NCBI GenBank assembly: GCA_947427095.1
Contig: CANEGO010000002.1
Span: forward strand, 99,810 to 163,809
Direction of reading: 5' to 3'
Source of the DNA: an uncultured Clostridium sp.
Lineage (GTDB): Bacteria; Bacillota_I; Bacilli_A; RF39; UBA660
Length of the DNA: 64,000 nt
The notes under the pieces were generated by a model. That model saw nothing but the letters and a program-made list of their open reading frames with translations, did not search any database and was not told the DNA's origin. Below are positions 2,405 through 63,651 of the stretch, one piece after another. Within the stretch, counting starts at the first letter, position 1. Every line of letters begins with the position of its first letter. The translations under genes and the position numbers were made by a program.

Positions 2405-2431
2405 TCAAAAAAGACCGCTTCAAGTCTTTTA
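2405..2431 (-). terminator. Rho-independent terminator after the N/Q-rich gene, just upstream of the rpiB RBS
   Basis: Hairpin AAAAGAC-N8-GTCTTTT followed by a U-run on the minus strand. Confidence 0.45.
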
Positions 2432-3610
2432 TTTATTTATTTTTATTATCAATTGTTGCATATGTTCAAAATCAAATTCTTCTAACTCTATATCTACTCC
2501 TTGATTTTTCAAATCTTGAATTAACTCTTTTAATTTTAAAACAGAATCGTTAACAGATAACATAGGTTTTGAATCATCATCCGATTCATCTTCATTAATA
2601 TCCATAATATCTAATGTATCTGGTTCATCATACATACCTTCTATTCCTAAATCTGATAAAGTAGATACGTTTTGTGAACTATCGTTCAACTTAGAATCTT
2701 GAATAATAGTATATTCGTTATTAATACCCAAATCCGTTGATTGAGTATTAGTGGTATTATCCAATTCTTTAGTGATTTCATTATCTTCAGTTGAAACTTG
2801 ATTAATATTTAAATTTTCCTGACCTAAAATATTATTTACAATATTTTTATTGTTTTGATTAAATTCATTTTCGTTCACTGAAAAATTAGAATTCGTATTT
2901 AAAACAAAATTTTCATTACTATTAAAAGCGGGTTGATCATTATTAAATTGTGGTACTTGAGATAATTGATTGGGAATTTGTCCAGAAAAAGTACTTGAAG
3001 GTGTACTACTTAACATATTATTATTATTCAAATTAAAGTTTCCATTAGAAGTATCAAAATTTGAAAAAGAATTCATTGACATATAGTTTTGAGGCTGGTT
3101 AATCACTTCCGGATATGAATTATTAATAGACGGATTTGGCATAATAGAAGTTTGAACATTATTAAAATTATTTAAATTACCATTTTCATAATTATCCAAT
3201 GGATCGTTAGCCCTTGCAACTTCAGGCATTACATTCATAGGATCCAAAACTTCCATGGTTGGAGCACTTGCTATGGTTGCATCACTTAAATTTTTAATTT
3301 CACCTAATTCTGGTGGTATATCACCTAAATTTTGACCTTCTAAATTTAAATCTTGATTAACAAAAGAAGGTGCAGAATTTACGTTCATTTGAGGCATTGT
3401 AGTGTTAAAACTTTTATCAAAAACATTATTAGTATCGTATGATCCAGTTTGATAGTTATTTGTATTTTGAACAGGTTGATTGATTTCATTTTGAAAAGTT
3501 TGATATTCACCATTAGCATTTCCTAAAGTATTAGTAAAATCATTTTGAAAAAGCGGTTTTACTTCATCATTGTTAAAATTCCTATTATTATTCATATCAT
3601 TATTAAACAT
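2429..3610 (-). CDS. Asn/Gln-rich low-complexity protein (393 aa) with a short structured acidic/helical C-terminus
   Basis: Uninterrupted 393-codon ORF in AT-rich DNA with an AAAGGGGAA RBS. About 30% N+Q, no TM helix. It sits where noc/parA/parB are found in most Firmicutes. Confidence 0.5.
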   Translation of the reverse strand: MFNNDMNNNRNFNNDEVKPLFQNDFTNTLGNANGEYQTFQNEINQPVQNTNNYQTGSYDTNNVFDKSFNTTMPQMNVNSAPSFVNQDLNLEGQNLGDIPPELGEIKNLSDATIASAPTMEVLDPMNVMPEVARANDPLDNYENGNLNNFNNVQTSIMPNPSINNSYPEVINQPQNYMSMNSFSNFDTSNGNFNLNNNNMLSSTPSSTFSGQIPNQLSQVPQFNNDQPAFNSNENFVLNTNSNFSVNENEFNQNNKNIVNNILGQENLNINQVSTEDNEITKELDNTTNTQSTDLGINNEYTIIQDSKLNDSSQNVSTLSDLGIEGMYDEPDTLDIMDINEDESDDDSKPMLSVNDSVLKLKELIQDLKNQGVDIELEEFDFEHMQQLIIKINK

Positions 3611-6789: not shown

Positions 6790-6824
6790 TTCTTTTGGTA
6801 TTATACAATATAATTAAAAAAAAG

Positions 6825-7868: not shown

Positions 7869-9212
7869 TTACTTTCCTAAACAAAATCTACTAAATAAAT
7901 TATCAACAAGTTCTTCTGTATAATTAGCTCCTATTATATCTCCTAATTTCTCCCAAACTAGTTTTAAATCTATTTCTATCATGTCTATTTCTCTTTCTTC
8001 GTTAACTCCTTTTTCTACTTCTTCTAACGATTCTATCGCAGACTTAAGTAATGCTATTTGTCTTGCGTTAGTAAAAAACATCAAATTCTTACTTAAGAAT
8101 GTACCCACGTTAAATAATTCTTTTATTTTATTCTTTACATCTTCGATACCGGTATTTTCTTTAGCACTTATTTTAATAACATCTTTATCATATGTGTTAT
8201 TACTATCCAAATCAGTTTTATTCATTATAACAATTCTTTTTTTATCTTTAGTTTTATCAAGTAAGAACTTATCTTCATCTGATAATTCTTCAGAAGCATC
8301 AAGCACTAAAAGTACTAATTCTGATTCATCTATTAAACTAATACTTTTTTCTATACCTATTTTTTCTACAATATCATTTGAATCTCTAACGCCTGCGGTA
8401 TCAATTAAATTAAGCTTAACACCACTTATTATAATACTTCCTTCAACAATATCCCTAGTAGTTCCTTTAACATCTGTTACAATAGCTTTTTCTTCTTCAA
8501 GTAGTGCATTTAATAAACTTGATTTACCTACGTTTGGCTTACCTAATATAACAGTTTTAATACCATCTTTTAATATTTTACCATCTTCTGATAATTTAAG
8601 TATTTCAAGTAGTTTAGATTTCATTTCTACTACTTCTTCTTTAATTCTATTTATGGTAACAACTTCAATATCTTCATATTCTGGATAATCTATATTTACT
8701 TCTATGTTTGAAATTAGAGCAACTATCTTATCTCTTAAATCAGTAATAAGTTTAGATACTTTACCTGATAACTGATTGATAGCCATTTTTCTAGTAAGTT
8801 CTGTTTCTGAATTAATTAAATCCATTACTCCTTCAGATTCCGCTAAATCTATTCTACCGTTTAAAAATGCTCTTTTAGTAAATTCTCCTGGCTGAGCAAG
8901 TCTACATCCAGAAAGTAATAATACTTCCATTATTTTATTAACTACAGCAATAGAACCATGAGTATTTATTTCTATTACATCTTCCCTTGTATATGTTTTA
9001 GGTGCTTTCATTATAGAAAGTAAAACTTCATCTATTATTTCATCTTTATATATAATGTGTCCATAATTTATCGTATGAGTTTTAATTTTAGTTAAATCCT
9101 TTCCACTAAATAAAGGATTAACTATACTTATAGCATCTTCACCAGATACCCTAATAATAGATATAGCGCCTTCTCCTAAAGCAGTTGAGATTGCAACAAT
9201 CGTATCATTCAT
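7869..9212 (-). CDS. mnmE: tRNA modification GTPase MnmE (TrmE/ThdF)
   Basis: G1-G4 GTPase motifs (GKPNVGKSSLLNAL, DTAG) and a C-terminal ..CLGK. Full length, 447 aa. Confidence 0.95.
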   Translation of the reverse strand: MNDTIVAISTALGEGAISIIRVSGEDAISIVNPLFSGKDLTKIKTHTINYGHIIYKDEIIDEVLLSIMKAPKTYTREDVIEINTHGSIAVVNKIMEVLLLSGCRLAQPGEFTKRAFLNGRIDLAESEGVMDLINSETELTRKMAINQLSGKVSKLITDLRDKIVALISNIEVNIDYPEYEDIEVVTINRIKEEVVEMKSKLLEILKLSEDGKILKDGIKTVILGKPNVGKSSLLNALLEEEKAIVTDVKGTTRDIVEGSIIISGVKLNLIDTAGVRDSNDIVEKIGIEKSISLIDESELVLLVLDASEELSDEDKFLLDKTKDKKRIVIMNKTDLDSNNTYDKDVIKISAKENTGIEDVKNKIKELFNVGTFLSKNLMFFTNARQIALLKSAIESLEEVEKGVNEEREIDMIEIDLKLVWEKLGDIIGANYTEELVDNLFSRFCLGK

Positions 9213-9281
9213 AGATAATCACTTCCTTTTTAATAGGTATTTTAACACATGCATAATAAAATTATAATAATTAATTTAAAT

Positions 9282-10610
9282 CTAAATTAAAGTTACTGAA
9301 CTCTTTTTATTATCTATTTCATTAACTATTGAATTAATAGAGTTATCAAACGAATCTTTAGAAACTTCTTTTGCCATAATATCAGTTTCTTCTACTTCAT
9401 TAACACTTTTCTTCGTTATAACCTTAATATAATTATCATAATATTCCCTTATTATTGTCATATTATCTAAATCTAATGCTGTAGTATCAGAGTTTTTATT
9501 AGCAGATTGAAAAAAAGTTTTTTTATAAAACTTTGGAATTCCTATCTCCTCTATTTTTTTTGAATTAAAATAATATTTAATACCGGAATCGCAATGAGTA
9601 AAGTTTATATTTGATATATATTTGATATGTTCATAAATCATTGGATTTATGAGTTCTTCATTTTCGATAATATCAAAATAGCAATCTCTTAATAAATCTA
9701 TTATTTTAATTCTTAAACTATCAAAGTCAGGATTTTCTTCTTTTCGTTCCCATCTATAATCGTTAAATAAAGCAAATAATTCATCTACCTTTTCTTTTTC
9801 TATTCCTCTATTTACTAAGGCATTCACTAATATATTTATGTCTCCTTTTGCTCTTGTTTCAAACAATATATCTGAACCTACAAATTCACATAAGATTCTA
9901 CAAAAAGTAACTTCAGCATCATACGAAATCAACTCATCATTATATTCATAAGCCAATAAGGCAGTTAGCCCTTCAAAAAACCATGCATTATCCCCTTTAT
10001 AATGTTCTTCCGCATGAAATATTTCATGTGAAATGGAATTATTTCTACAATTATCATTAGCAAAGGTTATTGAATTATCGTAATTATTATATAAACCAGC
10101 TATTCCTTCATCAAGCAAAGCCTCGTCACTTGAATTAATTTTAAAACTTGATAATTTATTATATACATACTCATAATCTAAATATTTATTATCTATAAAA
10201 TACTGTATATAACCAGTTAATTTTTCTTTTTCTTCTTTAGTTAAATACTCATTTTGTAATAATGCGTAGTATAAAGCATATGCTTTTTTTTCATCCATAT
10301 CAGAATTTCTTATTTTATCTACTATGTCTTTAAATGCATCATCACAAATAAATTCATTTGTTTTCACAGCTTGATAATTAGCGATAAAATCGGAACTCAT
10401 AGTAGACCCGGTAAAAGGGTTAGAATTATTTAACTCATATTCTACTCCATTTTTTATAGTACTTAAACAAATAGTTCCTTGAAGTGATAATAAAAGAGCT
10501 AAAAAGGCTGAAGTTATTTTTATTTGCCTATTTTTTAATTGTTCTAATTTACTTATATTATCATTCTTTCTTTTATAAAAATCTTTATCTTTATACAAAT
10601 GTAACACCAC
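9282..10610 (-). CDS. Membrane-anchored putative zinc metallopeptidase (HExxH zincin), 442 aa, family unknown
   Basis: N-terminal signal-anchor TM (IKITSAFLALLLSLQGTICL). HEIFHAEEH is followed by EGLTALLAYE about 20 aa downstream, a gluzincin-like arrangement of a third ligand. Confidence 0.5.
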   Translation of the reverse strand: MVLHLYKDKDFYKRKNDNISKLEQLKNRQIKITSAFLALLLSLQGTICLSTIKNGVEYELNNSNPFTGSTMSSDFIANYQAVKTNEFICDDAFKDIVDKIRNSDMDEKKAYALYYALLQNEYLTKEEKEKLTGYIQYFIDNKYLDYEYVYNKLSSFKINSSDEALLDEGIAGLYNNYDNSITFANDNCRNNSISHEIFHAEEHYKGDNAWFFEGLTALLAYEYNDELISYDAEVTFCRILCEFVGSDILFETRAKGDINILVNALVNRGIEKEKVDELFALFNDYRWERKEENPDFDSLRIKIIDLLRDCYFDIIENEELINPMIYEHIKYISNINFTHCDSGIKYYFNSKKIEEIGIPKFYKKTFFQSANKNSDTTALDLDNMTIIREYYDNYIKVITKKSVNEVEETDIMAKEVSKDSFDNSINSIVNEIDNKKSSVTLI

Positions 10611-13344: not shown

Positions 13345-13581
13345 TTTTCCACATTTGAGAAAAATAATTTTTTTATTACAAAAAAGATAACCACATACTT
13401 TTCCACAGATTTACACTGTTTTTTTCTATATTTCTTAATAATTACAATAATAATTAACAGTTTGTGGATAACTTTTACATGTTTACTATTTTATTAATAA
13501 TTTATTTTTTGGGGAAAAGTGCATTTTGTCGAAATTTGTTGAAAAATAAGAATTATAATTGTGGAAAACTCTTGTGGAAAA
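13345..13581. promoter_or_regulatory. oriC upstream DnaA-box cluster with the dnaA promoter region (5 boxes)
   Basis: TTTTCCACA at 13345 and 13399, a perfect TGTGGATAA at 13463, and TGTGGAAAA at 13560 and 13573, all immediately upstream of dnaA. Confidence 0.8.
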
Positions 13582-13672
13582 AATATAATTTATCAATATA
13601 CGTTGTTTTTCAACATTTTTTTTGGTAAAATAGATGTAAATAACTCGTTTTATAGGGGGAAAGGAGGTTATT

Positions 13673-15022
13673 ATGAACATAGATAATCTATGGGATAATT
13701 TCCTAGAAAAAATTAAACCAAGAATATCTTCATTATCTTATGATACTTGGTTTAAGAATACAAAACTAGTATCACTAGATAATAATGTTGCAAAAATACT
13801 TGTAGATTCGCCACTTCAAAAGAAAAGTTTACAAGAAACCTGGTATCAAACGATATCCGATGTATTTAGTGAAATAACGAATACAAGTTTCGATTTTGAA
13901 TTTGTTTTTGAAGATGAGGTAAGCATAAATACGAATATTCCTGTGGAAAACATCGGAGTTCCTTTAAATACACCAGAAAAATCAAATCTAAATCCTAAAT
14001 ATACGTTTGATTCTTTTATAACAGGTGATAGTAATAAGTTTGCTTACATGGCTGCGGTTTCAGTTGCAGAAAATCCAGGTAAAACTTATAATCCATTATT
14101 TTTATATGGAAATAGTGGACTAGGTAAAACTCATTTAATGCATGCAATAGGAAACTTTATTATCGAAAATTCAAATAAAAAAGTATTATATGTAACAAGT
14201 GAACAATTTATATCAGATTTTCTTAACCTTAATAAAAAGGATGAAACTGGTACAAATTTTAACTACATAGATAGCTTTAAGAACAAATATCGTGGAGTAG
14301 ACGTACTAATAATTGATGATATTCAGTTTTTAGGAGGCGCTACACAAACACAGCAAGAGTTTTTTAACACTTTTAATAACTTGTATGACGATAATAAACA
14401 AATTATAATCTCATCTGACAGATCACCGGATGACTTAAAAAAATTAGAAGATAGATTAAGAACCAGATTTAATTGGGGTCTTAGTGTAAATATTTATCCA
14501 CCTGATTATGAAATGAGAGTTCAAATTCTTAGAAAAAAAATAATTGGACAAAACATGGATGGTACGATAAATGATGATGTTATTGCTTATATTGCTAATA
14601 ATTGTGAATCGGACGTAAGGCAACTAGAGGGTGCACTAACTAGGGTTATTGCTTATGCAACGATGTTTAATACAAGAGATATTAATTTAACGCTAGCGAT
14701 TGATGCACTAAAAGATTATTTATCAAAATCTTCGTTTACTAAAAATAATATTCAAAAAATTCAGCAAGTTGTATCAGAATATTATAATATAACGGTGGAA
14801 GATTTAAAATCCAAAAAAAGAAAGGCAAGTATAGCGTTTCCAAGGCAAGTAGCGATATATCTATGTAGAACAATGACGGATGAGTCTTTTCCAAAAATTG
14901 GAATACAATTCGGTGGAAGAGACCATTCAACTGTTATACATTCGGTTGATAAAATTGATAATGAAATAAAAACTAATCCTCAATTTAAAACAATAATAGA
15001 TGCATTAAAAAGTAAAATATAA
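13673..15022 (+). CDS. dnaA: Chromosomal replication initiator DnaA
   Basis: Full-length DnaA with the AAA+ Walker A GNSGLGKTHL and the C-terminal DNA-binding domain. A GGAGG RBS is present. Confidence 0.97.
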   Translation: MNIDNLWDNFLEKIKPRISSLSYDTWFKNTKLVSLDNNVAKILVDSPLQKKSLQETWYQTISDVFSEITNTSFDFEFVFEDEVSINTNIPVENIGVPLNTPEKSNLNPKYTFDSFITGDSNKFAYMAAVSVAENPGKTYNPLFLYGNSGLGKTHLMHAIGNFIIENSNKKVLYVTSEQFISDFLNLNKKDETGTNFNYIDSFKNKYRGVDVLIIDDIQFLGGATQTQQEFFNTFNNLYDDNKQIIISSDRSPDDLKKLEDRLRTRFNWGLSVNIYPPDYEMRVQILRKKIIGQNMDGTINDDVIAYIANNCESDVRQLEGALTRVIAYATMFNTRDINLTLAIDALKDYLSKSSFTKNNIQKIQQVVSEYYNITVEDLKSKKRKASIAFPRQVAIYLCRTMTDESFPKIGIQFGGRDHSTVIHSVDKIDNEIKTNPQFKTIIDALKSKI

Positions 15023-15027
15023 TAAAC

Positions 15028-15160
15028 TGTGGATTAAATTAAATTTTTCAACTTAATTTGTGGATTAAAAATATTAGTTTTTCTTTTATTTAATAACAAA
15101 TATTTAACTTTTCCACATTATCCACAGTAATAATAAAAATACATATATATATATAAGGAG
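15028..15160. promoter_or_regulatory. oriC downstream DnaA-box cluster plus an AT-rich DNA-unwinding element between dnaA and dnaN
   Basis: TGTGGATTA at 15028 and 15059, TTTTCCACA at 15109, a perfect TTATCCACA at 15118, then a (TA)7 tract at 15143-15156. Confidence 0.8.
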
Positions 15161-16352: not shown

Positions 16353-17375
16353 ATGCCTAAGATTTTAGTGGCTGATTTATTTGGTACAATAATTCCAAAT
16401 AATATATTGAATGCTAATTATTTATATGTAAACATAGATAAATATAAAGATATTAATGAAATTTGTTATGATAAAAATCAGCATGAGTATTTGATTGAAA
16501 AATTATGTTTACAATGTGCAAATGATTTAAAAAAATTTTTAAACGATGGTAATGAACTTATAATAGCGTCGGATTTATCGGCTCACGAATTAAATTTAAC
16601 TTTTATTTATGAGGAGATTATAGAAAAAATATTAAAGTATTGTAATAAAAATTTTACTTTATATATGGTAACAAAGGGCGGCGCAGCTAGTTTCAACTTA
16701 GAGGTGTTAAAATCTCATATTACTGAAGAATATAGTGAACATGGTATTGATTATATTGTGTTTGAAGGTTATAAAATAGGTCTTATTGATAGAAAGGAAG
16801 ACATATTTAGAGTAGTTGAAAGTAAATTTAACTTACAAGAATGTGAATTATATTCAATTGGAAATGATTACAAAGATATTCCTATGCTTGTTAGATGTAT
16901 TGAGTTAGGTGGAAAAAGTTCTTTATTAAACTATAATTTATATTCTAACGAACTTCTTTCAAGAACTACGTTAGATAAAGCTATATGTGAAAGGATTCAA
17001 AGAGAAAATCATATATTATTAGAAAAAGAGTTGTTAAAAGACCATCCTGGTTTTAGTTTGTTAGATAAGTATAAATATTTAATGGAAAGAAGGCTAACTT
17101 CAGAATATAATAGATGGTATGAAAAAAGAAAAGAGGAGCTTTATCAAGAAGTAAGAAAAGGTAATATTACGTTAGAACAATTAATTAAAGAAAAATTAAT
17201 TTTTGGACTTTGTCAAACTGCTATTAATCATTGTTTAGAAAGGAAAACATTCATCGAAAATAATTTAGATAAAATAGATATGTATTCTACTTTTAGAGAT
17301 TATTATAATAAAGTACTTAATTGTGATTCAAAAGAAGAAATAAAAAAATCACCCGTAAAATTATTAAAACCTTAA
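16353..17375 (+). CDS. HAD-superfamily (Cof-like IIB) protein with a degenerate motif I and a roughly 130-aa charged helical C-terminal extension
   Basis: Motif IV SIGNDYKDIPML is present and motif I reads ILVADLFGTII (DxD changed to DxF). It has its own TATAAT promoter and an AAAGGAGG RBS. Confidence 0.55.
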   Translation: MPKILVADLFGTIIPNNILNANYLYVNIDKYKDINEICYDKNQHEYLIEKLCLQCANDLKKFLNDGNELIIASDLSAHELNLTFIYEEIIEKILKYCNKNFTLYMVTKGGAASFNLEVLKSHITEEYSEHGIDYIVFEGYKIGLIDRKEDIFRVVESKFNLQECELYSIGNDYKDIPMLVRCIELGGKSSLLNYNLYSNELLSRTTLDKAICERIQRENHILLEKELLKDHPGFSLLDKYKYLMERRLTSEYNRWYEKRKEELYQEVRKGNITLEQLIKEKLIFGLCQTAINHCLERKTFIENNLDKIDMYSTFRDYYNKVLNCDSKEEIKKSPVKLLKP

Positions 17376-17474: not shown

Positions 17475-17936
17475 ATGAAAAATTATGAAATTAATAGGCA
17501 AACGTTAGCAATAATATCTTGTGGAAAGGAAAAATCAAAAATAATAGAAGAAAATAATGAGTTTTTTATTGATCAATCTTCTACTAAAATAATTGATGAT
17601 AGTTGTAGGTTTTTTGGTAGTTCATACGATGGGAGACTTAATGGGACTAAAAGTATTTTAGGTGTTTCACACAAAGCACCCATTATTATTGAAGAAAGTT
17701 CTGGTATAATATTTTTTCCAACCACATCTCCTAGATTAGATTGTTGTTCATGGATTTCTTTAAACAATATAGAAGAATACTATAAATTATATGGTGATAC
17801 AATAATAAAATTTAGTTGTGGAAAAAAAATAAAGTTAGAATTATCGTATGGAATAATTGATAATCAAATATTAAGAGCAACGAGATTAGAGGCATTAATA
17901 GCAAAAAGAACTTATAATTTAAAAAAAATAGCTTAA
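17475..17936 (+). CDS. comK: ComK-family competence transcription factor homologue (153 aa)
   Basis: DDSCRFFGSSYDGR and HKAPIIIEESSGIIFFPTTS align with B. subtilis ComK DRSCRFFGSSYAGR and HKPPIMVDPSNQIFLFPTLS. An AAAGGAGGG RBS is present. Confidence 0.7.
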   Translation: MKNYEINRQTLAIISCGKEKSKIIEENNEFFIDQSSTKIIDDSCRFFGSSYDGRLNGTKSILGVSHKAPIIIEESSGIIFFPTTSPRLDCCSWISLNNIEEYYKLYGDTIIKFSCGKKIKLELSYGIIDNQILRATRLEALIAKRTYNLKKIA

Positions 17937-21114: not shown

Positions 21115-23583
21115 ATGGATCATAGTAAAGATAGATTAGAACATAATAATATAGTAGATGAAGTAAGATCATCATTCCTAGAATATTCAATGAGTGTAAT
21201 AGTATCTCGTGCATTACCAGACTTAAGAGATGGTTTAAAACCAGTTCATAGAAGAATTTTATATTCAATGTATGAATCTGGTTATACCCCAGATAAACCA
21301 CATAAGAAATCGGCAAGAATTGTCGGTGATGTAATGGGAAAATATCATCCACACGGGGACTCATCAATTTACGAAGCCATGGTTCGTATGGCGCAAGATT
21401 TTTCTTTTCGTTATATGCTTGTTGATGGTCATGGTAACTTTGGTAACATTGAAGGTTATGGGGCAGCAGCAATGCGTTATACAGAGTCAAGATTATCTAA
21501 AATGTCCCTTGAGTTGCTAAGGGATATAAATAAAAATACAGTAGATTTCGCACCTAACTTTGATGAATCTGAAAAAGAGCCTAAAGTATTACCTTCAAGA
21601 TTTCCTAATATATTAGTAAACGGAACTATGGGTATTGCTGTTGGTATGGCAACAAATATTCCACCACATAATTTATCTGAAGTAATAGATGGGTGTGTTG
21701 CTTACATTGATAATCCTGAAATTGATACTTTAGGTTTAATGCAATACGTAAAGGGGCCTGATTTTCCAACTGGTGGTATAATTTTAGGAAATAAAGGTAT
21801 AAGACAAGCCTATGAAACTGGTCGCGGTTCAATCACGATTAGGAGTAGGGCTAAAATAGAAGAAAAAAATGGTAAAAACTATATAATAATTGATGAAGTT
21901 CCTTATGGTGTTAATACTTCAGATTTAAAAAATAAGGTTGCGGAACTTGTTCATAGCAAAGTATTAGATGGCATTTCTGATTACCATACTGACTTAAAAG
22001 ATGGCATTAAAATAACAATTACGTTAAAAAGAGATGCAAATCCTCAAGTTGTATTAAATAATTTATATAAACATACAGCTTTCCAATCAAATTTTGGTAT
22101 TATTTTCTTAATGCTCGACAATGGAACACCAAAAACATTAGGATTAAGAGATATAATTTCAAAATATATTGATTATCAAAAAGAAATAGTCATAAGAAGA
22201 ACCAAATTTGATTTAGCAAAGGCTGAAAATAGAGTTCATATTTTAGAAGGTTATAAGATTGCTTTAGATAACATTGACGAAGTAATTAAGATAATTAAAG
22301 AAGCAGAAAGCGATGTAGTAGCTAAAGAAAAATTAATAAAGAGATTTGGATTCTCACAAATTCAAGCTGATAATATACTAGAATTAAAATTACGTAGGTT
22401 AACAGGTTTAGAAAGAAGTAAAATAGAATCTGAATTACAAGATTTACTTAAATTAATAGAAGAATTAAAGTCTATTTTATCTAGTGATGCTAATGTCTTA
22501 GCAGTTGTAAAAAAAGAATTACTAGAAGTTAAAAATAAATATGGAGATGAAAGAAGAACAACTATTGATATGACAGCGATTGATTTTATCGAGGATGAAT
22601 CTTTAATTCCAGAAGAAGATATTGTTGTTGCATTAACTCATAAAGGATATATCAAGAGAATGCCTACAGATACCTATAAGCTTCAAAATAAAGGCGGAGT
22701 AGGAATAAAAGGAATGTCTACTAACGATGAAGACTTTGTTGAAGTATTGAAGGTAGGAACGACTCATAATCATGTATTATTCTTTACTAATAAAGGTAAA
22801 GTATATAGAATCAAAGGTTATGAAATTCCAGAATTTTCAAGGCAATCAAAAGGCTTGCCAATAATAAATCTACTTCCAATAGAAAAAGATGAGAAAATTA
22901 ATAGCATTTTACTTGACAATGGTGATGAAAATAACAAATATTTAGTAGTAACAACAAAGACAGGCTTAATCAAGCGTACAAATGTTTGTGAATTTGAAAA
23001 TATTAGAAAGAATGGTAAAATTGCTATTACGCTAAAAGAAAATGATGAAGTATTATCAGTTCACTTTACTAATGGAAATGATGATGTAGTAATTGCCTCT
23101 AATAATGGAAGAATGATTAGATTTAATGAAAATGAAATCAGAGTAATGGGTAGAAATGCAAGCGGAGTTAAGGGTATTGAATTATCAAAAGATTGTTATT
23201 GTGTTGGAGCAGAAATAGCTCATGCAGGACAGGATGTTTTAGTTGTAACTGAAAGGGGTTATGGAAAACGTACTGACATAAATGAATATAGATTAACTCA
23301 TCGCGGCAGCAAAGGTGTTAAAACTCTTAATATAACTGATAAAAATGGTGCAATTGTGGCATTTAAGACGGTAACCGAAGATAAAGATTTAATGATAATA
23401 ACGGATCAAGGTATTGTAATTAGAATATCTTTAGATAAAGTTTCAAGGATGAGTAGAGTTACACAAGGTGTGCGATTAATGAATTTGAGAGAAGGTCAAA
23501 AGGTTGCTACTGTATCTGCTGTAGAAAAAGAAGATCAAATTGAAGAAAAATTAGAAGAAGATGAAAAGAAAACTAGTGAATAA
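21115..23583 (+). CDS. gyrA: DNA gyrase subunit A
   Basis: Active-site region ..AAMRYTE.. and C-terminal beta-pinwheel repeats; 822 aa. Confidence 0.97.
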
Positions 23584-23597
23584 CTGGTTTTCTTTTT

Positions 23598-23623
23598 TTT
23601 AATGTTTCACGTGAAACATTAAT
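23598..23623. repeat. Perfect 24-bp palindrome TTAATGTTTCACGTGAAACATTAA (copy 1), between the gyrA stop and the ffs promoter
   Basis: Exact self-complementarity read directly from the sequence. Confidence 0.9.
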
Positions 23624-23671
23624 TAAGTATAATAATTCTTGATTATTTATTAATAATATAATAAAATATAA

Positions 23672-23750
23672 ATGCACAACGGAAATGCTAGAATCAGGTC
23701 AGGGCCGAGAGGCAGCAGCCTTAATAACCTCTTTTCGTGTGTGCTTTTTT
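23672..23750 (+). ncRNA. ffs: Signal recognition particle RNA, short 4.5S-type (ffs/scRNA)
   Basis: The domain IV core CAGGUCAGGGCCGAGAGGCAGCAGCC matches the conserved SRP RNA motif (E. coli CAGGUCAGGUCCGGAAGGAAGCAGCC). The 5' GCACA and 3' UGUGC ends can pair. A TATAAT -10 sits at 23657-62 and a U-run at the 3' end. Its position before dnaX mirrors B. subtilis scr. Confidence 0.6.
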
Positions 23751-23762
23751 AATTTAAAATAT

Positions 23763-23780
23763 ATGTTTCACGTGAAACAT
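23763..23780. repeat. Perfect 18-bp palindrome ATGTTTCACGTGAAACAT (copy 2), in the tadA promoter/5'UTR just upstream of the RBS
   Basis: Exact palindrome, 6 nt upstream of the GGAG RBS. Confidence 0.9.
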
Positions 23781-23794
23781 TATAGGAGAATAAA

Positions 23795-24205
23795 ATGCAA
23801 AAAAAATTTATAGAACTGGCAATAAAGGAAGCAGTAAAAGCATTAAAAAAGGGAGAAGTGCCAGTTGGAGCTATAATTATAAAAAATGGTAAAATTATTG
23901 CTAAAGCACATAATTTGGTAGAGAAGCGAAGAAATGCTACATTTCATGCAGAAATTTTAGCTATGACTAAAGCATACGGAAAAACAAAAAATTGGAGACT
24001 GAATGACTGTGAAATGTATGTTACATTGGAGCCTTGTAAGATGTGTGCTGCCGCAATAGAACTAAGTAGGATTAAAAAGGTCTATTATTTGTTACCTAAA
24101 GATAAAGAAAATATTTTTATTAATAAAGAAAAATATATATTTTTAAAAGATTATAAAAAAGATTCCTTAGATTTGATACATAGTTTTTTTAAAAAAATAA
24201 GATAA
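23795..24205 (+). CDS. tadA: tRNA-specific adenosine deaminase TadA
   Basis: Zinc-binding HAE (FHAEILAM) and PCxxC (EPCKMCAAAI) motifs. Confidence 0.85.
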   Translation: MQKKFIELAIKEAVKALKKGEVPVGAIIIKNGKIIAKAHNLVEKRRNATFHAEILAMTKAYGKTKNWRLNDCEMYVTLEPCKMCAAAIELSRIKKVYYLLPKDKENIFINKEKYIFLKDYKKDSLDLIHSFFKKIR

Positions 24206-24225
24206 TGTTTCACGTGAAACATTAT
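24202..24225. repeat. Perfect 24-bp palindrome ATAATGTTTCACGTGAAACATTAT (copy 3), overlapping the tadA stop codon and upstream of the dnaX promoter
   Basis: Exact palindrome. It may also act as an intrinsic terminator hairpin, since a U-rich tract follows it. Confidence 0.9.
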
Positions 24226-24288
24226 CTTTTAGTTTAAAAATAATAGTTAAAATGATATAATATAAAAGTAAATGAAAGGAGAGATTGC

Positions 24289-25932
24289 ATGGCATATCAA
24301 ACGTTATATAGAAAATATCGCCCAAAGAGTTTTAAACTAGTATATGGCCAAGATACTATAGTAAGAACTTTAAAAAATGTAATTAAAAATAATAAGTTAA
24401 GTCATGCATATCTGTTTACTGGGCCAAGAGGGACCGGAAAAACAAGTAGTGCTAAACTTTTTGCAAAAGCTATAAATTGTTTAAACAATCAAAATGGAGA
24501 TGCATGTAATGAATGCGATAATTGCAACTCATTTAATAATAATAAAAATCCGGATATAATTGAAATTGATGCTGCTTCAAATAATGGCGTGGATGAAATA
24601 AGAGAAATAAAAAATAAGATTAGTTTAGTTCCATCAATGTCAAAGTATAAAGTATATATAATTGATGAGGTACATATGCTTTCTATAGGTGCGTTTAATG
24701 CCCTGTTAAAAACTTTGGAAGAGCCACCAGAATATGTTATTTTTATATTGGCGACTACAGAGCCTCAAAAATTACCCGTAACAGTAATTTCACGATGCCA
24801 AAGATTCGATTTTAAAAACATATCTAAGCAAAATATGAAAGAATGCCTTAAAAATATAATCATGGGGGAAAATATAAATATTAGCGATGATGCATTAAAT
24901 GAAATTATAGATAATTCTAACGGTGGAATGAGAGATGCCATAGGAATGTTAGATCAAGCTTTTGCTTTTTGTGAGAAAGAAATCACTTTAAATGATATTC
25001 AAGAATTATCTGGTAGTATTTCAACTTCAGAAATATCTTCTTTCTTTAAAAATTTAAAGTTAAAATCATACAATGAAATTATAGATATGATAAAAAATTG
25101 GTCAAATAAAGGAAAGGATTTTTTTGTGATATCTCAAAAACTAATTAACATTACTAGAAATGCTATTTTGTATAAGAAAAATGTTGATATAGGAGAAACA
25201 AGAATAAATAATTTAAGTGTATTTGATGAATATAATGAATTAAATTTATATTTAATAATTGATAATTTGACTGAAACACTAAATAAATTACAATTTAGTT
25301 ATCAAAAGGAGTTAATATTTGAAATACAAATGATTAAATTAATTGATCAATTCAATGTTCCACGTGAAACATTGAATAAAAAAATAACAGAGCAATCAAA
25401 GCCTATCATAAAAAATGATGTTCCACGTGGAACATTGAATGATAATACATCTGTAGTTGAAAAATTAGATCAATTTATTTTGAAATTAAAAGAAATTAGA
25501 ATAAATAATATATTAAAAGAGTCTTCACGCAATGAATTAAAATATATAGATGATTTATGGGAAAATATAAATGATTATTTGGTGGAAGAAAAATATAAAA
25601 AATGCGCGGGCATACTATTACAATGTAAACCTGTTGCAGCTTCAAAAAATGGAATTATAATTACACTGCCAGCACAGTCATTGTTAGTGGAGATTGAAAA
25701 AAATTATGACTTTAGCAAAGAAATGATAAAAGAAATATTAAATTCAAAGTATAAAATTGTATATATAACAGATGAGTATTGGAAAAGTATAAGACCTAAA
25801 TATGTGGAATTAGTAAAAAATAATGAATTAGAGATAAAGGATGAACTACAATTGCTTTCTAAAATAAATAAAATTAAAAGCGAAACGTCTGTTAATGAAT
25901 TTGATGAATTAATTGAAATGGAGGAAAAATAA
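24289..25932 (+). CDS. dnaX: DNA polymerase III subunit tau/gamma
   Basis: Walker A GPRGTGKTS, a Zn module CNECDNC, and tau C-terminal domains. Extended -10 TGATATAAT and GGAG RBS. Confidence 0.95.
   Translation: MAYQTLYRKYRPKSFKLVYGQDTIVRTLKNVIKNNKLSHAYLFTGPRGTGKTSSAKLFAKAINCLNNQNGDACNECDNCNSFNNNKNPDIIEIDAASNNGVDEIREIKNKISLVPSMSKYKVYIIDEVHMLSIGAFNALLKTLEEPPEYVIFILATTEPQKLPVTVISRCQRFDFKNISKQNMKECLKNIIMGENINISDDALNEIIDNSNGGMRDAIGMLDQAFAFCEKEITLNDIQELSGSISTSEISSFFKNLKLKSYNEIIDMIKNWSNKGKDFFVISQKLINITRNAILYKKNVDIGETRINNLSVFDEYNELNLYLIIDNLTETLNKLQFSYQKELIFEIQMIKLIDQFNVPRETLNKKITEQSKPIIKNDVPRGTLNDNTSVVEKLDQFILKLKEIRINNILKESSRNELKYIDDLWENINDYLVEEKYKKCAGILLQCKPVAASKNGIIITLPAQSLLVEIEKNYDFSKEMIKEILNSKYKIVYITDEYWKSIRPKYVELVKNNELEIKDELQLLSKINKIKSETSVNEFDELIEMEEK
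25354..25375. repeat. Near-perfect palindrome CAATGTTCCACGTGAAACATTG (copy 4), in frame inside dnaX
   Basis: One mismatch from a perfect palindrome. It encodes ..NVPRETLN.. in the dnaX linker. Confidence 0.85.
25418..25435. repeat. Perfect 18-bp palindrome ATGTTCCACGTGGAACAT (copy 5), in frame inside dnaX
   Basis: Exact palindrome. It encodes ..DVPRGTLN.., 60 nt after copy 4. Confidence 0.9.
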
Positions 25933-37586: not shown

Positions 37587-37675
37587 TATATGAACTTTTT
37601 TATTTGTGTTTATTGATTTTTATCCCCATTTGTGGTTAAATTAAAATGTATAAACTAAAATGGGAGGACTATACT

Positions 37676-40600
37676 ATGAACATGGCAAAGTCGAATATTA
37701 AAAGCAGATTAAGTGATTGGTTTCTTATTCAGAGAATTAGAATAACTAATTTTATGAAGGAACATAAGTATGTTTCGGCGTTTATTGGTGTTTTTTTAAT
37801 GTCTTCCTTAATTGCTTTCATAGTTTACGCGGTTGATGCAAACAAGTATGATGGTCAGGTTTCAGTTACGGCTAAAGTTGAGCAAAAAAACGTATCTTCA
37901 AGCGAGGAAATTACACATATTAAAAGCTTTAGCAACATCATATATGATATATCATATGGATTATCAATATCAGACTTACCTGCCAACGAAACGGTTGTAA
38001 GGGAAAAAGTAATAATTGAAGCAGAATTTAACGAAGGTATTGATGCTGAATGGATATTCCAGGACGAGGATGCAACTTATGAATTGTCAGAAGATAAAAG
38101 AAAGTTAACGGTAACTATTTATCAAACTAAGGTTGGGGAACTTAACAGCAAGCAATTGTATTTAAAAGCAAAAAATATACAAAATGGAACAGTTATAAAT
38201 ACGAATATTAGAATAAAGGAATCTACCGCCGCAGATTTTACTGATTTAGGTCAAAAAAGTGTAGTAATAGAAAGTGAAAAAGTTGATTTAACTACTAAAA
38301 TAATATCTGGCACAGCTTATAAATCTTCTGACTATCAAGAAGGACGATTAGCTCCTTTTGGTATATTAGTTGGATTTGATAAAAGTAATCTTAAAACAGA
38401 GAATAAAGATAGTTTAGAGGGGCTTTATTTTGATCCTAATTTGAGTTTAATATTAGAAGCAACTCAGACTGTAAATGGAGTTAATTCTCAAATAGAATTA
38501 AAAAATGATAGTAATAAATTTTTTGGATTATATGATAAAGGATCTAATTTATTGCCATTGATGCCACATCATATAAATAATTATCAATATTATTCAGTAT
38601 ATAATTCCGGTAAGGTTACAAACTTAATCAAGTCAAAAAGTGGGGTTTCCGGTGTTGTTACTGAAAATAAAAATCCAGATTTATATTTAATAGGTGATAA
38701 AACCATGAATTTAGAGCTTGGAGAAAAATACGAAGAATATGGTGTGTCAACAACAAATGGTGGTTCAGCTATTTGCAAAACAAGCAGTTCTTCCTGCACC
38801 CGTGTTATAAAAGATAAAGATGGAAATGAAATCGCTGATAATGACGTTACCAAATCGGTTGGTAATTATATTGTTAGCTATGAATATAATACGGCAAGTG
38901 GTGTTACTAAGGTTAACAGAAATATCAAAGTTGCTGAAAAAACAACGGCTACTTTAAATGATGATGTGTATGAACTAAACGGTAATAAAATCATTACTTT
39001 AGTAAAAGGTACAGCTTATTCTGAAAGTGGAATAATAAAAAATGGTGCTAAATATTATAATTATGAAAGTATCATAACAAAAGATGGAGATGTTATTGAA
39101 AAAATAGACGCAACCATAGTTGGTACCTATGTAATAACTTATAAAATTACTGATGCTACTAGTCAGACGCCAGAAACTGGTGAAGAGACCCTGGCAGAGG
39201 AATCTACCATTAAAGAAGTTTCGTTAACAAGGACGGTTAAAGTAGTTGAAGGCTTGGAGTATTTGAAAGCACAAACGATTACTTCCAGCACTATTTATGC
39301 TCCGTCAGATGGTTCATTTACTAACCCTTTAATAAATCTTGATGGCAAGGATATAGAATGTACAAGCGATAGTGGATGTGAGGTTAAATATTATGATCCA
39401 ATTAGTAAAAAAGAAACAACTATTGATAAACAAAAAGCTGGAACATATAATGCTATATATAAAATAACCGATAAAAATGGATTTGAACTACAAACGGGAA
39501 ATGTTATTAATATTCAAACTAAATATGATTTTAATATAGAGGGAATAAAATCTGATGGAACTATTAATTTATATGGAGACGATTTTGTTGCATTAGGTTC
39601 TTATTTTGTAAATGCGGCATCTCCTAGAGCTCTTGAAGCAAGTGGTGATATTGCAGTTAATCTAAGAATTGGTGATGTAGTATCAGAAAATGTTATTAAT
39701 AAAGTTTATTCGGCAGGAACGAAAACTAATCATTTAACATTTAATACCGATACCTCTGGAATGTTAACAGAGTTGCCAAATGACACTTATTTAGCTTATG
39801 GTGAAGAAGTTATTTTAAGATCGGTATTTAATTATTCTAGTGATGGCGATGATAATATTGGAACTTTAACAACTAGGATTCCGATTGGTACGGCTGTTTC
39901 ATCAGCAAATAATCCGACCGCTCCGTTTACTATGGTTGAGTATAATAATAGTGTGGAGAATGGTGAACCCTATTACGTAAATGAGGAATTAAAAGATAAA
40001 GTAAAAGTTAGCTATTATGCATGTGAAATGGAAGAATCTAAGACAACCTGTATTAGTGAAACCGGAGCAACTTATGAAACTTTTGATACATTAAATGACG
40101 CTTTGAAGAAAAATGATAAATTAAGATTAGCTTATTTAACATACGTGGTTAATGACGTAAGACCTGGCTCTGAAATTGATTTTAGGATTAGATTAGTTGC
40201 TAACGTTGGAAATCATGATGGAGTACTTACAATGACATCAACATCTACATTTGATGAAAAGCAAGAAAATGGAACTAGTCAAAGTAAAAATATATCTGAT
40301 AATAGTACTATAAACGTTACCGCGTTTAAGGCAAGGACTAAAGTGTTTATTGGTAATAGTGAACAAGACGTCATAATAAATGCCGCTAATGTAAATAGCT
40401 CAACGTGGACTATTTATCCGACAATAAGTTTACCAGCAGAGTTAGTAAATACTAATATAGCGGCTATAGATGAACTTTCTAATATTACAATCGTTGTTAC
40501 TTTGCCTGATGGAATTAATTATTTATATAATGAAAATTATGATATTCCTTCAGTAAGTAATAATGGCAAAACCCTAACTTATGTTTTAAAGGGGAAACAC

Positions 40601-49639: not shown

Positions 49640-49827
49640 TGTTTTAAAATATGAATAGTTATTGCCGGTAAAGCATAACTATATAGTACCAAAGACAGTA
49701 GGAGCAAAACGCATAACTATATTCCTACCGAGGACAAAAATCATAATTAGGATTTTAAGGTCTTTCATGTCTTTGATGTGAAGGCCTTTTAATTTAGGTA
49801 CTTATTACTAAAGAAGGAGGAAGAAAC
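49640..49827 (+). promoter_or_regulatory. rplJ leader (L10(L12)4 autoregulatory leader RNA region)
   Basis: A 188-nt untranslated leader in the position where Firmicutes carry the L10 leader, with structured GC-containing segments in an otherwise AT-rich context. The secondary structure was not verified. Confidence 0.45.
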
Positions 49828-60332: not shown

Positions 60333-61676
60333 ATGGATTCCGTTAATGAATTTTTAAAAACTTTAAATATAAATAAGAATGATACATTAATTGTTGCTGT
60401 GTCTTTTGGGCCAGATTCTATGGCATTATTAAATATTATAAAAAGAGTGTATCCTAATAATAAAATAGTTTGTGCTCATGTACATCATAATCATAGAAAA
60501 GAAAGTGATATAGAATGTGACGAGTTGAGAAAATATTGTGTTAAAAGCAAGATAGATTTTGAATTTATGAAAATAGAATCTTATAAAAATGATATGTTTA
60601 CCGAAGAGGAAGCAAGAAGTAAAAGATATTCTTTCTTTGATTCTTTGATAAAAAAATATGGCTCTAATTATTTATTTACGGCACACCATGGTGATGATTT
60701 AGTTGAAACCGTATTGATGAGAATAATAAGGGGTTCTTCGCTTAAAGGATATGCTGGAATACCACTTATTAGTAAACGAAAAAGTTATAATCTTATTAGG
60801 CCATTTCTTTTTGTTACCAAAGATGATATATTAAGTTATTGTAATGAAAATAATATTTCTTATGCTGTGGATAAGTCCAATTCGGATGACTCATATACAA
60901 GAAATAGGTATAGAAAATACGTATTACCATGTCTTAAACAAGAAAATCCATTAGTTCACAAACAGTTTTTAAAGTTTTCCACAGTATTAAATGAATATGA
61001 TAATTACTTTGAGAAAGTTATTGATAAGTTATATCCTAGTGTTATAACTCAAAATGAAATAAACGTAAGTGAACTTTTAAAACAGGATGATTTGATTATA
61101 AAAAGATTGATTATGAGGTATTTATACGATAATTATAAAGAAGAAATTACTTACGTAGAAAGTGATAACATCGATTTAGTCCTTTCTCTTGTTAAAAGTA
61201 AAAAAACATGTAGTGAAATTTCTTTACCTAGAAAAAAAACGTTAATAAAGTCTTATAATAAGATATATTTCGATAATGGTTTTAAATATAATGATTATTG
61301 TTTTGTGTTTGATGGTTATGAAAAGTTGCCTAATGATTTTATAATTAATAAGATTGGTAATCTAGAAAATACCACTAATTACGTTACTGCTTTTAATAGT
61401 CAGGATATTAGTTTTCCACTATACATAAGAAACGTTATTAATGGTGACAAAATCGAGGTTCTAGGACTTAATGGTTCAAAAAAAGTACATGATATTTTTA
61501 TTACGGAAAAGATTCCTAAACGATTTAGAGAAGTATATCCATTATTAGTAGATAGTGAAGGTAAAATACTTTGGATACCTGGTGTTAAAAAATCTAAATA
61601 TGATAAGTCAAAACAAGGGAAATATGATATAATATTAAAGTATTACAAGGAGGAAAAAAATGACAGGACAAAATAG
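60333..61676 (+). CDS. tilS: tRNA(Ile)-lysidine synthetase TilS
   Basis: PP-loop (VAVSFGPDSMAL) and a C-terminal TilS substrate-binding domain; 447 aa. Confidence 0.85.
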   Translation: MDSVNEFLKTLNINKNDTLIVAVSFGPDSMALLNIIKRVYPNNKIVCAHVHHNHRKESDIECDELRKYCVKSKIDFEFMKIESYKNDMFTEEEARSKRYSFFDSLIKKYGSNYLFTAHHGDDLVETVLMRIIRGSSLKGYAGIPLISKRKSYNLIRPFLFVTKDDILSYCNENNISYAVDKSNSDDSYTRNRYRKYVLPCLKQENPLVHKQFLKFSTVLNEYDNYFEKVIDKLYPSVITQNEINVSELLKQDDLIIKRLIMRYLYDNYKEEITYVESDNIDLVLSLVKSKKTCSEISLPRKKTLIKSYNKIYFDNGFKYNDYCFVFDGYEKLPNDFIINKIGNLENTTNYVTAFNSQDISFPLYIRNVINGDKIEVLGLNGSKKVHDIFITEKIPKRFREVYPLLVDSEGKILWIPGVKKSKYDKSKQGKYDIILKYYKEEKNDRTK

Positions 61677-63651
61677 TCAAAACATGAAAAAGGGAATGTT
61701 TCCTTATTTTTTACTACTAGCTATTGGACTATCAATATTGTTCTTTTATAGTATGACTAGTGGAACTAATAAGGAATTAACTTATAATGAGTTTAATAAA
61801 GCATTATCTAAAAATAATATAGAAGAGGTTGTAATTACCCCATCTACGGCTGCATATACTTATCAAATCACTGGTAAGTTAAAAGATGCTAAAGAGGGAG
61901 AAACTTTTAGCGTAAAGACTCCGTTATCAGATACAGTAATTAATAAAATTGTAGATGCAAGTGATGAAAAAGATTTTAAAATAGTGTCTAAAGCTGATCC
62001 ATCCGCTAGCCCATGGCTATCATTTTTAATAAATGTAGCTCCTACGCTTTTACTTATAGGCCTTGCTTTTTGGTTTTTTACTAAGCAGCTTAATGGTCAA
62101 AAAGGATCGATGGACTTTGGAAGAAGTAAGGCTAAACTAAATCCAGATAAGGGCAGGATAACCTTTAAGGATGTTGCGGGCCTTCCAGAGGAAAAAGAAG
62201 AATTGCAGGAGCTAATAGACTTCTTAAAATATCCTAAAAAATTCCAAAAATTAGGGGCTAGAATTCCTAAAGGAGTACTTTTAGTAGGGCCTCCGGGAAC
62301 TGGTAAAACATTACTTGCAAAGGCTGTTGCAGGTGAAGCAAACGCACCATTTTATTTTATATCGGGTTCTGATTTTGTTGAATTATATGTTGGTGTTGGA
62401 GCATCTAGAGTTAGAGATATGTTTAAACAAGCTAAGCAAAATGCACCTTGTTTAATATTTATTGATGAAATTGATGCTGTAGGCCGTCAGCGTGGTACTG
62501 GTATTGGTGGCGGGCATGATGAAAGAGAACAAACGCTTAACCAATTATTAACGGAAATGGATGGTTTTGGAGCAAATGAAGGTATTATAATTATCGCTGC
62601 AACCAACAGACCTGACGTACTTGATCCAGCTTTACTTAGACCAGGACGTTTTGATAGACAGGTTACGGTTGCACTTCCTGAACAAAAAGCAAGGGAAGAA
62701 ATTTTAAAAGTACATGCAAGAAACAAAGTGTTATCAAAGGGTGTACACCTAGATAGTATTGCTAAGAGAACAGTCGGATTTTCAGGAGCAGATTTAGAAA
62801 ATCTGCTTAATGAAGCGGCACTTCTTGCAGTTAGAAGAGAAAAAGGGGCTATTACCATGTCAGAAATAGATGAGGCAATAGATAGAGTTATAATGGGCCC
62901 TGCAAAGGTAACTAAAAAGTATACTGCAAAGGAAAAGAAGCTTGTTGCATATCATGAGGCGGGTCATGCCGTACTTGGTATTAAACTTGATGATGCCAAT
63001 GACGTTCAAAAAGTAACAATAATACCTAGAGGTCAAGCTGGTGGTTATAATTTAATGTTACCAAAAGAAGAAAAGTATACTGCTACTAAAACCGAGTTAC
63101 TAGAACAAATAATGGGATTACTTGGAGGTCGAGTTGCGGAAGAAGTGGTTTTCGACGAAATTACGACGGGTGCTCATAATGACTTTGAAAAAGCAACTAA
63201 AATTGCTAGAAGCATGGTAACCGAATATGGTATGTCTACGCTTGGGCCAATACAATTAGAAACTCCAGAAGGAAGTTCTTTCTTAGGAAGAGATTATAAT
63301 AAAAACCGTAATTTTTCTGATCAAGTTGCTCTTGAGATAGATAATGAAGTAAGAAACATAATTAATGATTGTTACGATAAAGCTAAGAAAATTATCGAAA
63401 AAAATAGAGATTTACTTGATTTAATAGCTAATTCTTTGATTGAACATGAAACTTTAACAAAAGAACAAATTGACTATTTAGCAGAAAATGGTAAAATGCC
63501 AGCAGATGATATGTTAGATGATGTTTCACTATCTAAATTAAAAGAAATGGCAAAAGAGAAGAAAATTAAAGGATTTAGTTCTATGAATAAAGATGAACTA
63601 AAGAAAGTTTTAACAGAAGAATTAACTGATAATAATAAGAAAAGCGACTAA
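61660..63651 (+). CDS. ftsH: ATP-dependent zinc metalloprotease FtsH
   Basis: Two N-terminal TM helices, AAA Walker [12 protein letters not shown], and zinc-binding HEAGHA. Confidence 0.97.

Follow-up and report, generated by a model that had tools for sequence, protein, structure and literature searches.

Five parS sites around the SRP RNA, tadA and dnaX genes form a probable origin-proximal centromere in an uncultured lineage of gut Bacilli

The 64,000-nucleotide stretch of contig CANEGO010000002.1 analysed here (the window; G+C ~29%), from an uncultured Clostridium sp. of the Bacilli, carries five copies of a 16-bp palindrome packed into 1.8 kb around the small signal recognition particle (SRP) RNA gene (scr), tadA and dnaX. 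These palindromes are very probably functional parS sites, which together would form the chromosomal centromere, a multi-site loading centre for a ParB protein encoded elsewhere in the genome. Three observations lead to this reading: the sites match the parS consensus, they lie 8.5–10 kb from the replication origin (oriC), and they are conserved at exactly this locus across a clade of gut Bacilli.

Three copies are exact matches to TGTTTCACGTGAAACA and two are variants, and all five fit the published parS consensus tGTTNCACGTGAAACa (PMC7022226). The exact copies fill the three successive gaps between gyrA, the SRP RNA gene, tadA and dnaX, giving the order parS copy 1, SRP RNA gene, copy 2, tadA, copy 3, dnaX with copies 4 and 5 inside it, and then ybaB and recR (Table 1). 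Copy 2 begins 7 nt past the 3′-end of the SRP RNA and immediately ahead of the tadA ribosome-binding site, while the palindrome around copy 3 overlaps the tadA stop codon and runs into TTTTAGTTT. An earlier note on this DNA had recognised the three exact sites and had described the two copies in dnaX as degenerate. The exact sites and the location of the other two stand, but copies 4 and 5 depart from the consensus solely at positions 5 and 12 and are standard natural parS variants. The variant at copy 4, TGTTCCACGTGAAACA, is the one used as B. subtilis parS in published work, and that at copy 5, TGTTCCACGTGGAACA, itself a perfect palindrome, is a Pseudomonas consensus variant (PMC7022226, Table 1 therein).

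Such a group of sites is not expected by chance. From base composition, we calculate that ~1.6e-5 exact copies would be expected in 64 kb. A scan of the window allowing up to three mismatches returned six matches against an expectation of 0.26, and none of 100 shuffled sequences reached six. The sixth match, at 62325, has three mismatches, the core included, and looks like a chance occurrence. No further site with two or fewer mismatches is present anywhere in the window.

The position of the cluster relative to the origin is well defined. GC skew flips sign at 13–14 kb, and two clusters of DnaA boxes lie on either side of dnaA, so arranged that oriC is of the typical bipartite Firmicute type. 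Measured from the DnaA-box clusters and the skew switch, the start of the cluster falls at the distance given above, in keeping with the ~10 kb that the earlier note had estimated.

To place the cluster among relatives, 80 loci (L001–L080) were compared, one genome per species, whose DnaX proteins are 38–77% identical to that of the window. All 80 derive from metagenome-assembled genomes (MAGs) of uncultured gut ‘Bacilli/Tenericutes/Mollicutes’, including Clostridium sp. CAG:594 and Candidatus Aphodocola. Homologues of DnaX more generally form a graded series of identities from 100% to 63%. The gene order dnaA-dnaN..recF-gyrB-gyrA-scr-tadA-dnaX-ybaB-recR is kept in every one of the 80 loci. 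With up to two mismatches allowed, the window and the 80 loci (1.45 Mb) contain 411 sites, 404 of which lie in the interval from the 3′-end of gyrA to where dnaX ends; the remaining seven mostly look like chance matches. At least one site occurs in 79 of the 81 sequences (median 4, maximum 24), and the only loci lacking one, L065 and L070, include no more than ~1.3 kb and ~0.65 kb of sequence upstream of dnaX. The gap between gyrA and scr accounts for 131 of the relatives’ sites and that between scr and tadA for 62. When the gap between tadA and dnaX was aligned for 22 relatives, copy 3 stood out as a conserved island: conservation is limited to parS with its trailing T-run and to the extended –10 element of dnaX. 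The tight origin-proximal cluster described in the earlier note is thus found at the same locus throughout the group. Because nearly all sites fall in one interval and nearly all sequences have one, the cluster is an ancient, locus-specific feature and no dispersed repeat.

The last point bears on the possibility that a dispersed repeat or mobile element, similar to repetitive extragenic palindromes (REP) or miniature inverted-repeat transposable elements (MITE), landed three times around tadA. The three intergenic copies do share an identical core of 18–20 bp with AT-rich flanks, and tandem amplification is seen in relatives. However, all copies in the window fall within a single 1.8-kb locus, and those of relatives occupy the corresponding place, with only the seven mostly chance-like exceptions. 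No further copy is found in the 64 kb or in four additional origin-region loci (L081 from a close relative and L211–L213 from the window’s own species), and there are neither target duplications nor common flanks past the palindrome. An origin by transposition is therefore extremely unlikely. Scattered copies, which the earlier note had considered as a sign of a repeat element, are absent within the sequence covered, namely the window and ~1.5 Mb of related origin-region sequence.

The variation among sites follows the pattern tolerated by ParB. In a profile of 410 sites, positions 2–4, 6–11 and 13–15 are invariant, partly by ascertainment, while position 5 alternates between T (57%) and C (43%), position 12 between A (86%) and G (14%), and positions 1 and 16 show minor variation. 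The published consensus leaves these same positions open, and the variants correspond to sites reported for B. subtilis, Pseudomonas and other bacteria (PMC7022226). The flanking positions, which are not subject to ascertainment, are also constrained: the base before the site is A in 98% of cases and the one after it is T in 87%, against backgrounds of 41% and 32%, so that the conserved unit in this clade is an 18-bp palindrome. The asymmetric form with C at position 5 and A at position 12 makes up 141 of the 410 sites, as expected if a dimeric protein reads the two half-sites independently and contrary to what a selected hairpin would show. The sites are also distinct from the Noc-binding site, whose palindrome consensus is TATTTCCCGGGAAATA, as they have G at position 2 and a CACGTG centre in 99–100% of the 410.

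Hairpin formation was nonetheless weighed, since copy 3 has the features of a terminator. It is the core of a 13-pair stem with three G-C pairs, which lies where tadA ends and is followed directly by TTTTAGTTT, and it receives a terminator-like score on both strands. Its outer stem covaries in the relatives (UA, CG and UG at one pair); the observed score was not attained in any of 500 shuffles, and slid controls scored lower. Because of this T-run-tailed stem and the covariation outside the core, copy 3 may double as the tadA terminator, and a secondary role of this kind is plausible for copy 3 alone. It is highly improbable that all five palindromes are RNA or DNA hairpins acting as terminators or processing sites of gyrA, SRP RNA and tadA, with only a coincidental likeness to parS. 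A stable stem followed by a U-run is found at copy 3 and at none of copies 1, 2, 4 and 5; no T-run follows copy 1 or copy 2, and for gyrA there is a separate terminator-like hairpin. The core is conserved in sequence without covariation and is mismatched in the C5/A12 form, termination would be harmful at the in-frame copies in dnaX, and arrays of up to 24 copies would make no sense as terminators.

We also observed that two to four more flanking positions are complementary more often than in shuffled controls, in-gene sites included. This extra palindromy beyond the core exceeds the shuffled level in three of four site classes; it is present at sites between gyrA and scr and at in-gene sites, and absent from those between scr and tadA. 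It lends some support to a hairpin, yet its presence at in-gene sites means that it is not solely a terminator effect. It could reflect a preference of ParB, duplication history or hairpin formation, and the measure can be inflated by the relatedness and partial amplification of the sequences.

The copies inside dnaX provide a clear view of selection. In an alignment of 15 DnaX homologues, the variable, indel-rich linker contains one to three islands per protein that read NVPRETL, NVSRETL or DVPRGTL. All 82 in-dnaX sites of the closer relatives are in one frame, T-GTT-YCA-CGT-GRA-ACA, which encodes [ND]V[SP]R[EG]T[LS], and synonymous codons are almost never used in them. In the dnaX of the window, the only CGT codons are those for the two arginines of the parS motifs, AGA being dominant otherwise. 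A random choice of synonymous codons would rebuild parS from the peptide ~2% of the time. In dnaX it is therefore the DNA that is conserved rather than the peptide, and the sites are obviously under purifying selection, even in coding sequence. The peptide encoded by copy 4, NVPRET, also occurs in B. subtilis Spo0J (sequence checked against PDB 6sdk and 5noc), and the parS site within spo0J is presumably the stretch that encodes it.

The results that weigh against a ParB-read centromere all concern the par genes. Neither ParB nor ParA domains were detected by Pfam in window open reading frames (ORFs) of at least 80 aa, or by a relaxed scan of the four unannotated ones, and tblastn with B. subtilis Spo0J and Soj gave no hit to the window, nor to the 10 kb around dnaX in any of the 80 relatives. 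The Spo0J query is identical to PDB 6sdk over residues 21–218 and matches 5noc from residue 216. The tblastn result is meaningful because the same queries pick up ParB, and ParA where present, in 120 of 120 AT-rich control loci. Extending the search to the left by ~10 kb, using a close relative whose SpoIID is 89% identical and in which the order is rsmG, unknown ORF, rpiB, spoIID, M23 peptidase, mbl, agr-like system, hpf and secA, revealed no par genes. The same was true of 8.6 kb beyond the right edge in the same species (exact FtsH, contigs 99% identical to the window), which holds ftsH, a convergent penicillin-binding protein (PBP) gene, argS, prfA, prmC, spoIIR and mntP. In total, ~84 kb around oriC was covered in this species or its close relative. 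The earlier note’s observation that no parB lies by the origin in the window is thus borne out. The three independent contigs of the window’s species (L211–L213) all end ~45 bp past mntP, ~8.6 kb beyond position 64000, and this shared stop suggests a repeat there, such as an rRNA operon or an insertion sequence (IS) element.

ParB is widespread in the wider group. A metagenome scan for ParB motifs in AT-rich codons yielded 120 loci, and canonical ParA-ParB pairs (PF02195 and PF17762, GERR motif) are common, for example in Coprobacillus sp. CAG:605. One very large gut ParB family, beginning MExKKxALGKGLEQLF and with GERR and the helix-turn-helix (HTH) intact, includes proteins that are named ParB in ‘Bacilli bacterium’ and in Coprobacillus sp. 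CAG:605. In three lineages of this family (L203–L210, L214–L217), the order is tilS-ftsH-(0–3 genes)-parA-parB-mscS-DUF951-abgT-ychF-rpsF-ssb-rpsR, a placement that differs from the usual Firmicute position, rsmG-noc-soj-spo0J. Another ParB-bearing lineage keeps the latter arrangement, and its dnaN/dnaA DNA is 72–79% identical to that of several loci with parS arrays. No parS was found in the ParB loci of the tilS-ftsH and rsmG lineages, and these lineages are distant from the window (FtsH 62–64% identical). As a side observation, one gut lineage (L192:8830-13698) carries an ISL3 transposase and a reverse transcriptase by a bAvd-like gene upstream of soj-parB; the latter pair are hallmarks of a diversity-generating retroelement.

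Further points on the negative side come from this comparison. None of the scanned ParB loci was matched to the window’s species, and a tetranucleotide signature applied to the 120 loci did not discriminate members of the clade. Both positions of parAB in relatives, after rsmG and after tilS-ftsH, hold other genes in this lineage. Firmicutes usually carry noc-soj-spo0J downstream of rsmG; here an N/Q-rich ORF of 393 aa occupies that place. Its resemblance to Noc-like ParB-family proteins of 400–514 aa from related lineages is confined to the last ~40 aa, which match their C-terminus (34% over 41 aa, E=2e-5; GKSQ...RHAR signature). It has no ParB N-terminal or HTH domain, and a 417-aa version is present in the close relative L081. 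The ORF looks like a truncated noc derivative, in which the DNA-binding half would have been lost. It was also considered as a hidden ParB and rejected, since nothing of the Noc-like protein is left apart from the N/Q-rich linker and those ~40 C-terminal residues. As to where parB lies, a question raised in the earlier note, the outcome is mixed: ParB is common in the wider group, with none in the ~84 kb covered.

These findings can be read in three other ways. The sites could be orphans that have been decaying without present function since the lineage lost ParB, as the earlier note had allowed. The lack of parA and parB in ~84 kb and at both of the relatives’ positions, and the truncated noc-like gene, are what one would expect. 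The purifying selection seen even inside a coding region speaks against relics, however: the sites are perfectly conserved at the same locus in 38 closer and ~40 more distant species, synonymous codon choice in dnaX is frozen and the number of copies shows active turnover, where decay would be expected in an AT-rich genome. We consider relic sites very unlikely. Alternatively, the lineage may have lost canonical parAB, in which case the reader of the sites would be a ParB that has relocated and diverged strongly, or else a protein other than ParB. Because both ancestral positions are occupied and the noc-like gene is truncated, yet the sites, 3–11 perfect copies per genome in the window’s lineage, are under strong selection, this deserves mention, and we regard it as unlikely. 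If true, it would be a natural case of a centromere retained after loss of the classical partition operon.

The third possibility is that the reader is another protein, for example a local regulator of scr, tadA and dnaX or the nucleoid protein YbaB. ParB has not been located within the ~84 kb, ybaB is directly downstream of dnaX in every locus, and a regulatory output is conceivable, as ParB-bound intergenic parS can repress neighbouring genes in Pseudomonas aeruginosa (PMC7022226). On the other hand, the motif is base for base a ParB site with the tolerance pattern of ParB. Linkage of dnaX, ybaB and recR is near-universal in bacteria irrespective of parS. To our knowledge, no other protein family recognises the parS 16-mer, and a different reader is very improbable. 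Functional parS sites served by a ParB encoded elsewhere thus remain by far the best explanation.

In several relatives, the sites have been amplified into head-to-tail arrays. Locus L071 has 24 perfect 26-bp units between gyrA and the SRP RNA gene (8724-9348) in a circular 1.26-Mb HiFi MAG, L069 has 9.4 units of 55 bp between tadA and dnaX (9409-9923), and further arrays, with periods of 26–39 bp, occur in L055, L066, L051, L052, L059, L063, L064 and L078. Head-to-tail ParB sites are also found in sopC of the F plasmid, an array of 43-bp repeats. Unlike sopC, which is of plasmid type Ia and has a plasmid-specific sequence, the array unit here is the chromosomal parS, and the sopC-like arrangement is confined to relatives such as L071, L069, L055 and L066, the window itself having no tandem repeat that contains parS sites. 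Several short-read contigs of relatives end within parS arrays. It is therefore probable that the arrays interrupt assemblies shortly before dnaX and that copy numbers there are lower bounds, and their regular spacing might be mistaken for CRISPR-like repeats.

Among known systems, the cluster shares with parS/Spo0J of Bacillus subtilis the 16-bp consensus TGTTNCACGTGAAACA and the origin-proximal position; one B. subtilis site lies within a coding region (PMC7022226), as two do here in dnaX. Of the 10 B. subtilis sites, 8 fall in the ori domain (PMC7022226, Table 1 therein), whereas the window has five in 1.8 kb and none elsewhere in 64 kb. In B. subtilis, parAB is located by rsmG and noc with parS inside parB, whereas here the cluster is at scr-tadA-dnaX and parAB is unlinked. 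Origin-proximal parS clusters are already known from B. subtilis, P. aeruginosa (parS1-4), Myxococcus xanthus (22 sites), Corynebacterium glutamicum and Streptomyces, including S. coelicolor (PMC7022226, PMC4368675). A single parS can suffice for segregation, and intergenic sites can affect neighbouring promoters (PMC7022226, PMC4368675). The window shares with P. aeruginosa, M. xanthus, C. glutamicum and S. coelicolor the grouping of several parS by oriC. The clusters of these four species lie beside or around parAB and extend over several kb to tens of kb; that of the window is denser, apart from parAB and partly in-frame coding.

Streptococcus pneumoniae, which has ParB-parS and no ParA, offers another parallel as a member of the Bacilli with few, origin-proximal parS sites. 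All four of its parS are origin-proximal, its reduced par system mainly loads SMC, and its consensus is AGTTTCACGTGAAACT (PMC7022226). This consensus differs from the TGTTTCACGTGAAACA of the window. The S. pneumoniae parB is near the origin. A full-text literature search (parS with ParB and dnaX) retrieved no report of parS at dnaX, scr or tadA. As a centromere, the cluster is of an ordinary bacterial kind, unusual only in its site at scr/tadA/dnaX, its dnaX-internal copies and its separation from parB. What sets it apart is a density of five sites per 1.8 kb, a constant position at scr-tadA-dnaX throughout a deep clade, the copies lying in frame within dnaX, the distance from parAB and, in relatives, the sopC-like arrays.

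Established ParABS biology (reviewed in PMC7022226) suggests how the cluster would work. Canonical ParB dimers with HTH and CTPase domains, encoded elsewhere, would nucleate on each site, bind cytidine triphosphate (CTP), close as clamps and slide to flanking DNA, forming a partition complex that should reach oriC. This complex would load SMC-ScpAB and, if ParA is present, would be pulled apart after replication. Several sites in 1.8 kb may give a higher loading rate and redundancy, and placement around the near-essential SRP RNA, tadA and dnaX, and in frame in dnaX, would keep the centromere in a rarely rearranged part of the chromosome.

The gene map of the window (Table 1) was built from Pfam, using ORFs of at least 80 aa, and Rfam. 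To the left of oriC, the minus strand carries genes for an M23 peptidase, spoIID, rpiB, the 393-aa ORF, rsmG, mnmG, a GNAT acetyltransferase, a YhcG-like nuclease, mnmE, an unknown ORF, jag, yidC and rnpA. To the right, the plus strand carries dnaA, dnaN, an unknown ORF, comK, recF, gyrB and gyrA and, farther right of the cluster, rpoB, rpoC, tilS and ftsH. A promoter-like TTGATT-17-TAAAAT lies by the SRP RNA gene at 23639–23667.

Table 1. Positions of the parS copies and of genes and regions discussed in the text, in window coordinates.
Feature	Positions	Strand	Description
parS copy 1	23603..23618	.	Exact TGTTTCACGTGAAACA; gap between gyrA and SRP RNA gene; core of 24-bp perfect palindrome 23599-23622
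parS copy 2	23764..23779	.	Exact TGTTTCACGTGAAACA; gap between scr and tadA; 18-bp palindrome 23763-23780
parS copy 3	24206..24221	.	Exact TGTTTCACGTGAAACA; gap between tadA and dnaX; core of 30-bp palindrome 24199-24228
parS copy 4	25356..25371	.	TGTTCCACGTGAAACA; within dnaX; encodes N356-V-P-R-E-T361
parS copy 5	25419..25434	.	TGTTCCACGTGGAACA, perfect palindrome; within dnaX; encodes D-V-P-R-G-T
oriC region	13345..15126	.	DnaA-box clusters 13345-13581 and 15028-15126, either side of dnaA (13673-15022)
gyrA	21115..23583	+	Upstream limit of cluster; Pfam; own terminator-like hairpin 23563-23597
Small SRP RNA gene (scr/ffs)	23666..23757	+	Rfam RF00169, 52 bits vs gathering score 40; between parS copies 1 and 2
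tadA (tRNA adenosine deaminase)	23795..24205	+	Pfam MafB19-deam, dCMP_cyt_deam_1; between parS copies 2 and 3
dnaX (clamp-loader tau)	24289..25932	+	Pfam DNA_pol3_delta2 and others; variable linker holds parS copies 4 and 5
tilS-ftsH	60333..63651	+	Pfam; convergent PBP gene next in this species
393-aa N/Q-rich ORF	2429..3610	-	Directly downstream of rsmG; looks like a truncated noc derivative

Other features were noted in the window. The ComK-family gene (17475–17936, plus strand) lies between dnaN and recF and adjoins a 340-aa ORF without a family match (16353–17375). The genes for the GNAT acetyltransferase and the YhcG/DUF1016 PD-(D/E)XK nuclease (6172–7763, minus strand) are found between mnmE and mnmG, and the same gap in the close relative L081 is without them. 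Two adjacent, very large ORFs of 1534 and 721 aa (37646–44372, plus strand) have SpaA, SdrD-B and Ig-like domains and are likely to be surface or pilus-like adhesins. A ribosomal protein L10 leader (RF00557, 66 bits; 49671–49801, plus strand) is located upstream of rplJ.

With this cluster, the likely centromere can be placed for a large group of gut Bacilli that are uncultured and genome-reduced, comprising ‘Clostridium sp. CAG:594’, ‘Candidatus Aphodocola’ and many MAGs. The copies in dnaX are a natural example of selection at the DNA level repeatedly writing a fixed peptide, NV[SP]RET, into an essential protein. With up to 24 tandem sites, the relatives provide a graded natural series in which the number and spacing of parS could be set against ParB clamp loading. 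The scr-tadA-dnaX locus would have served as the centromere through deep divergence, while parAB moved or vanished from its usual places.

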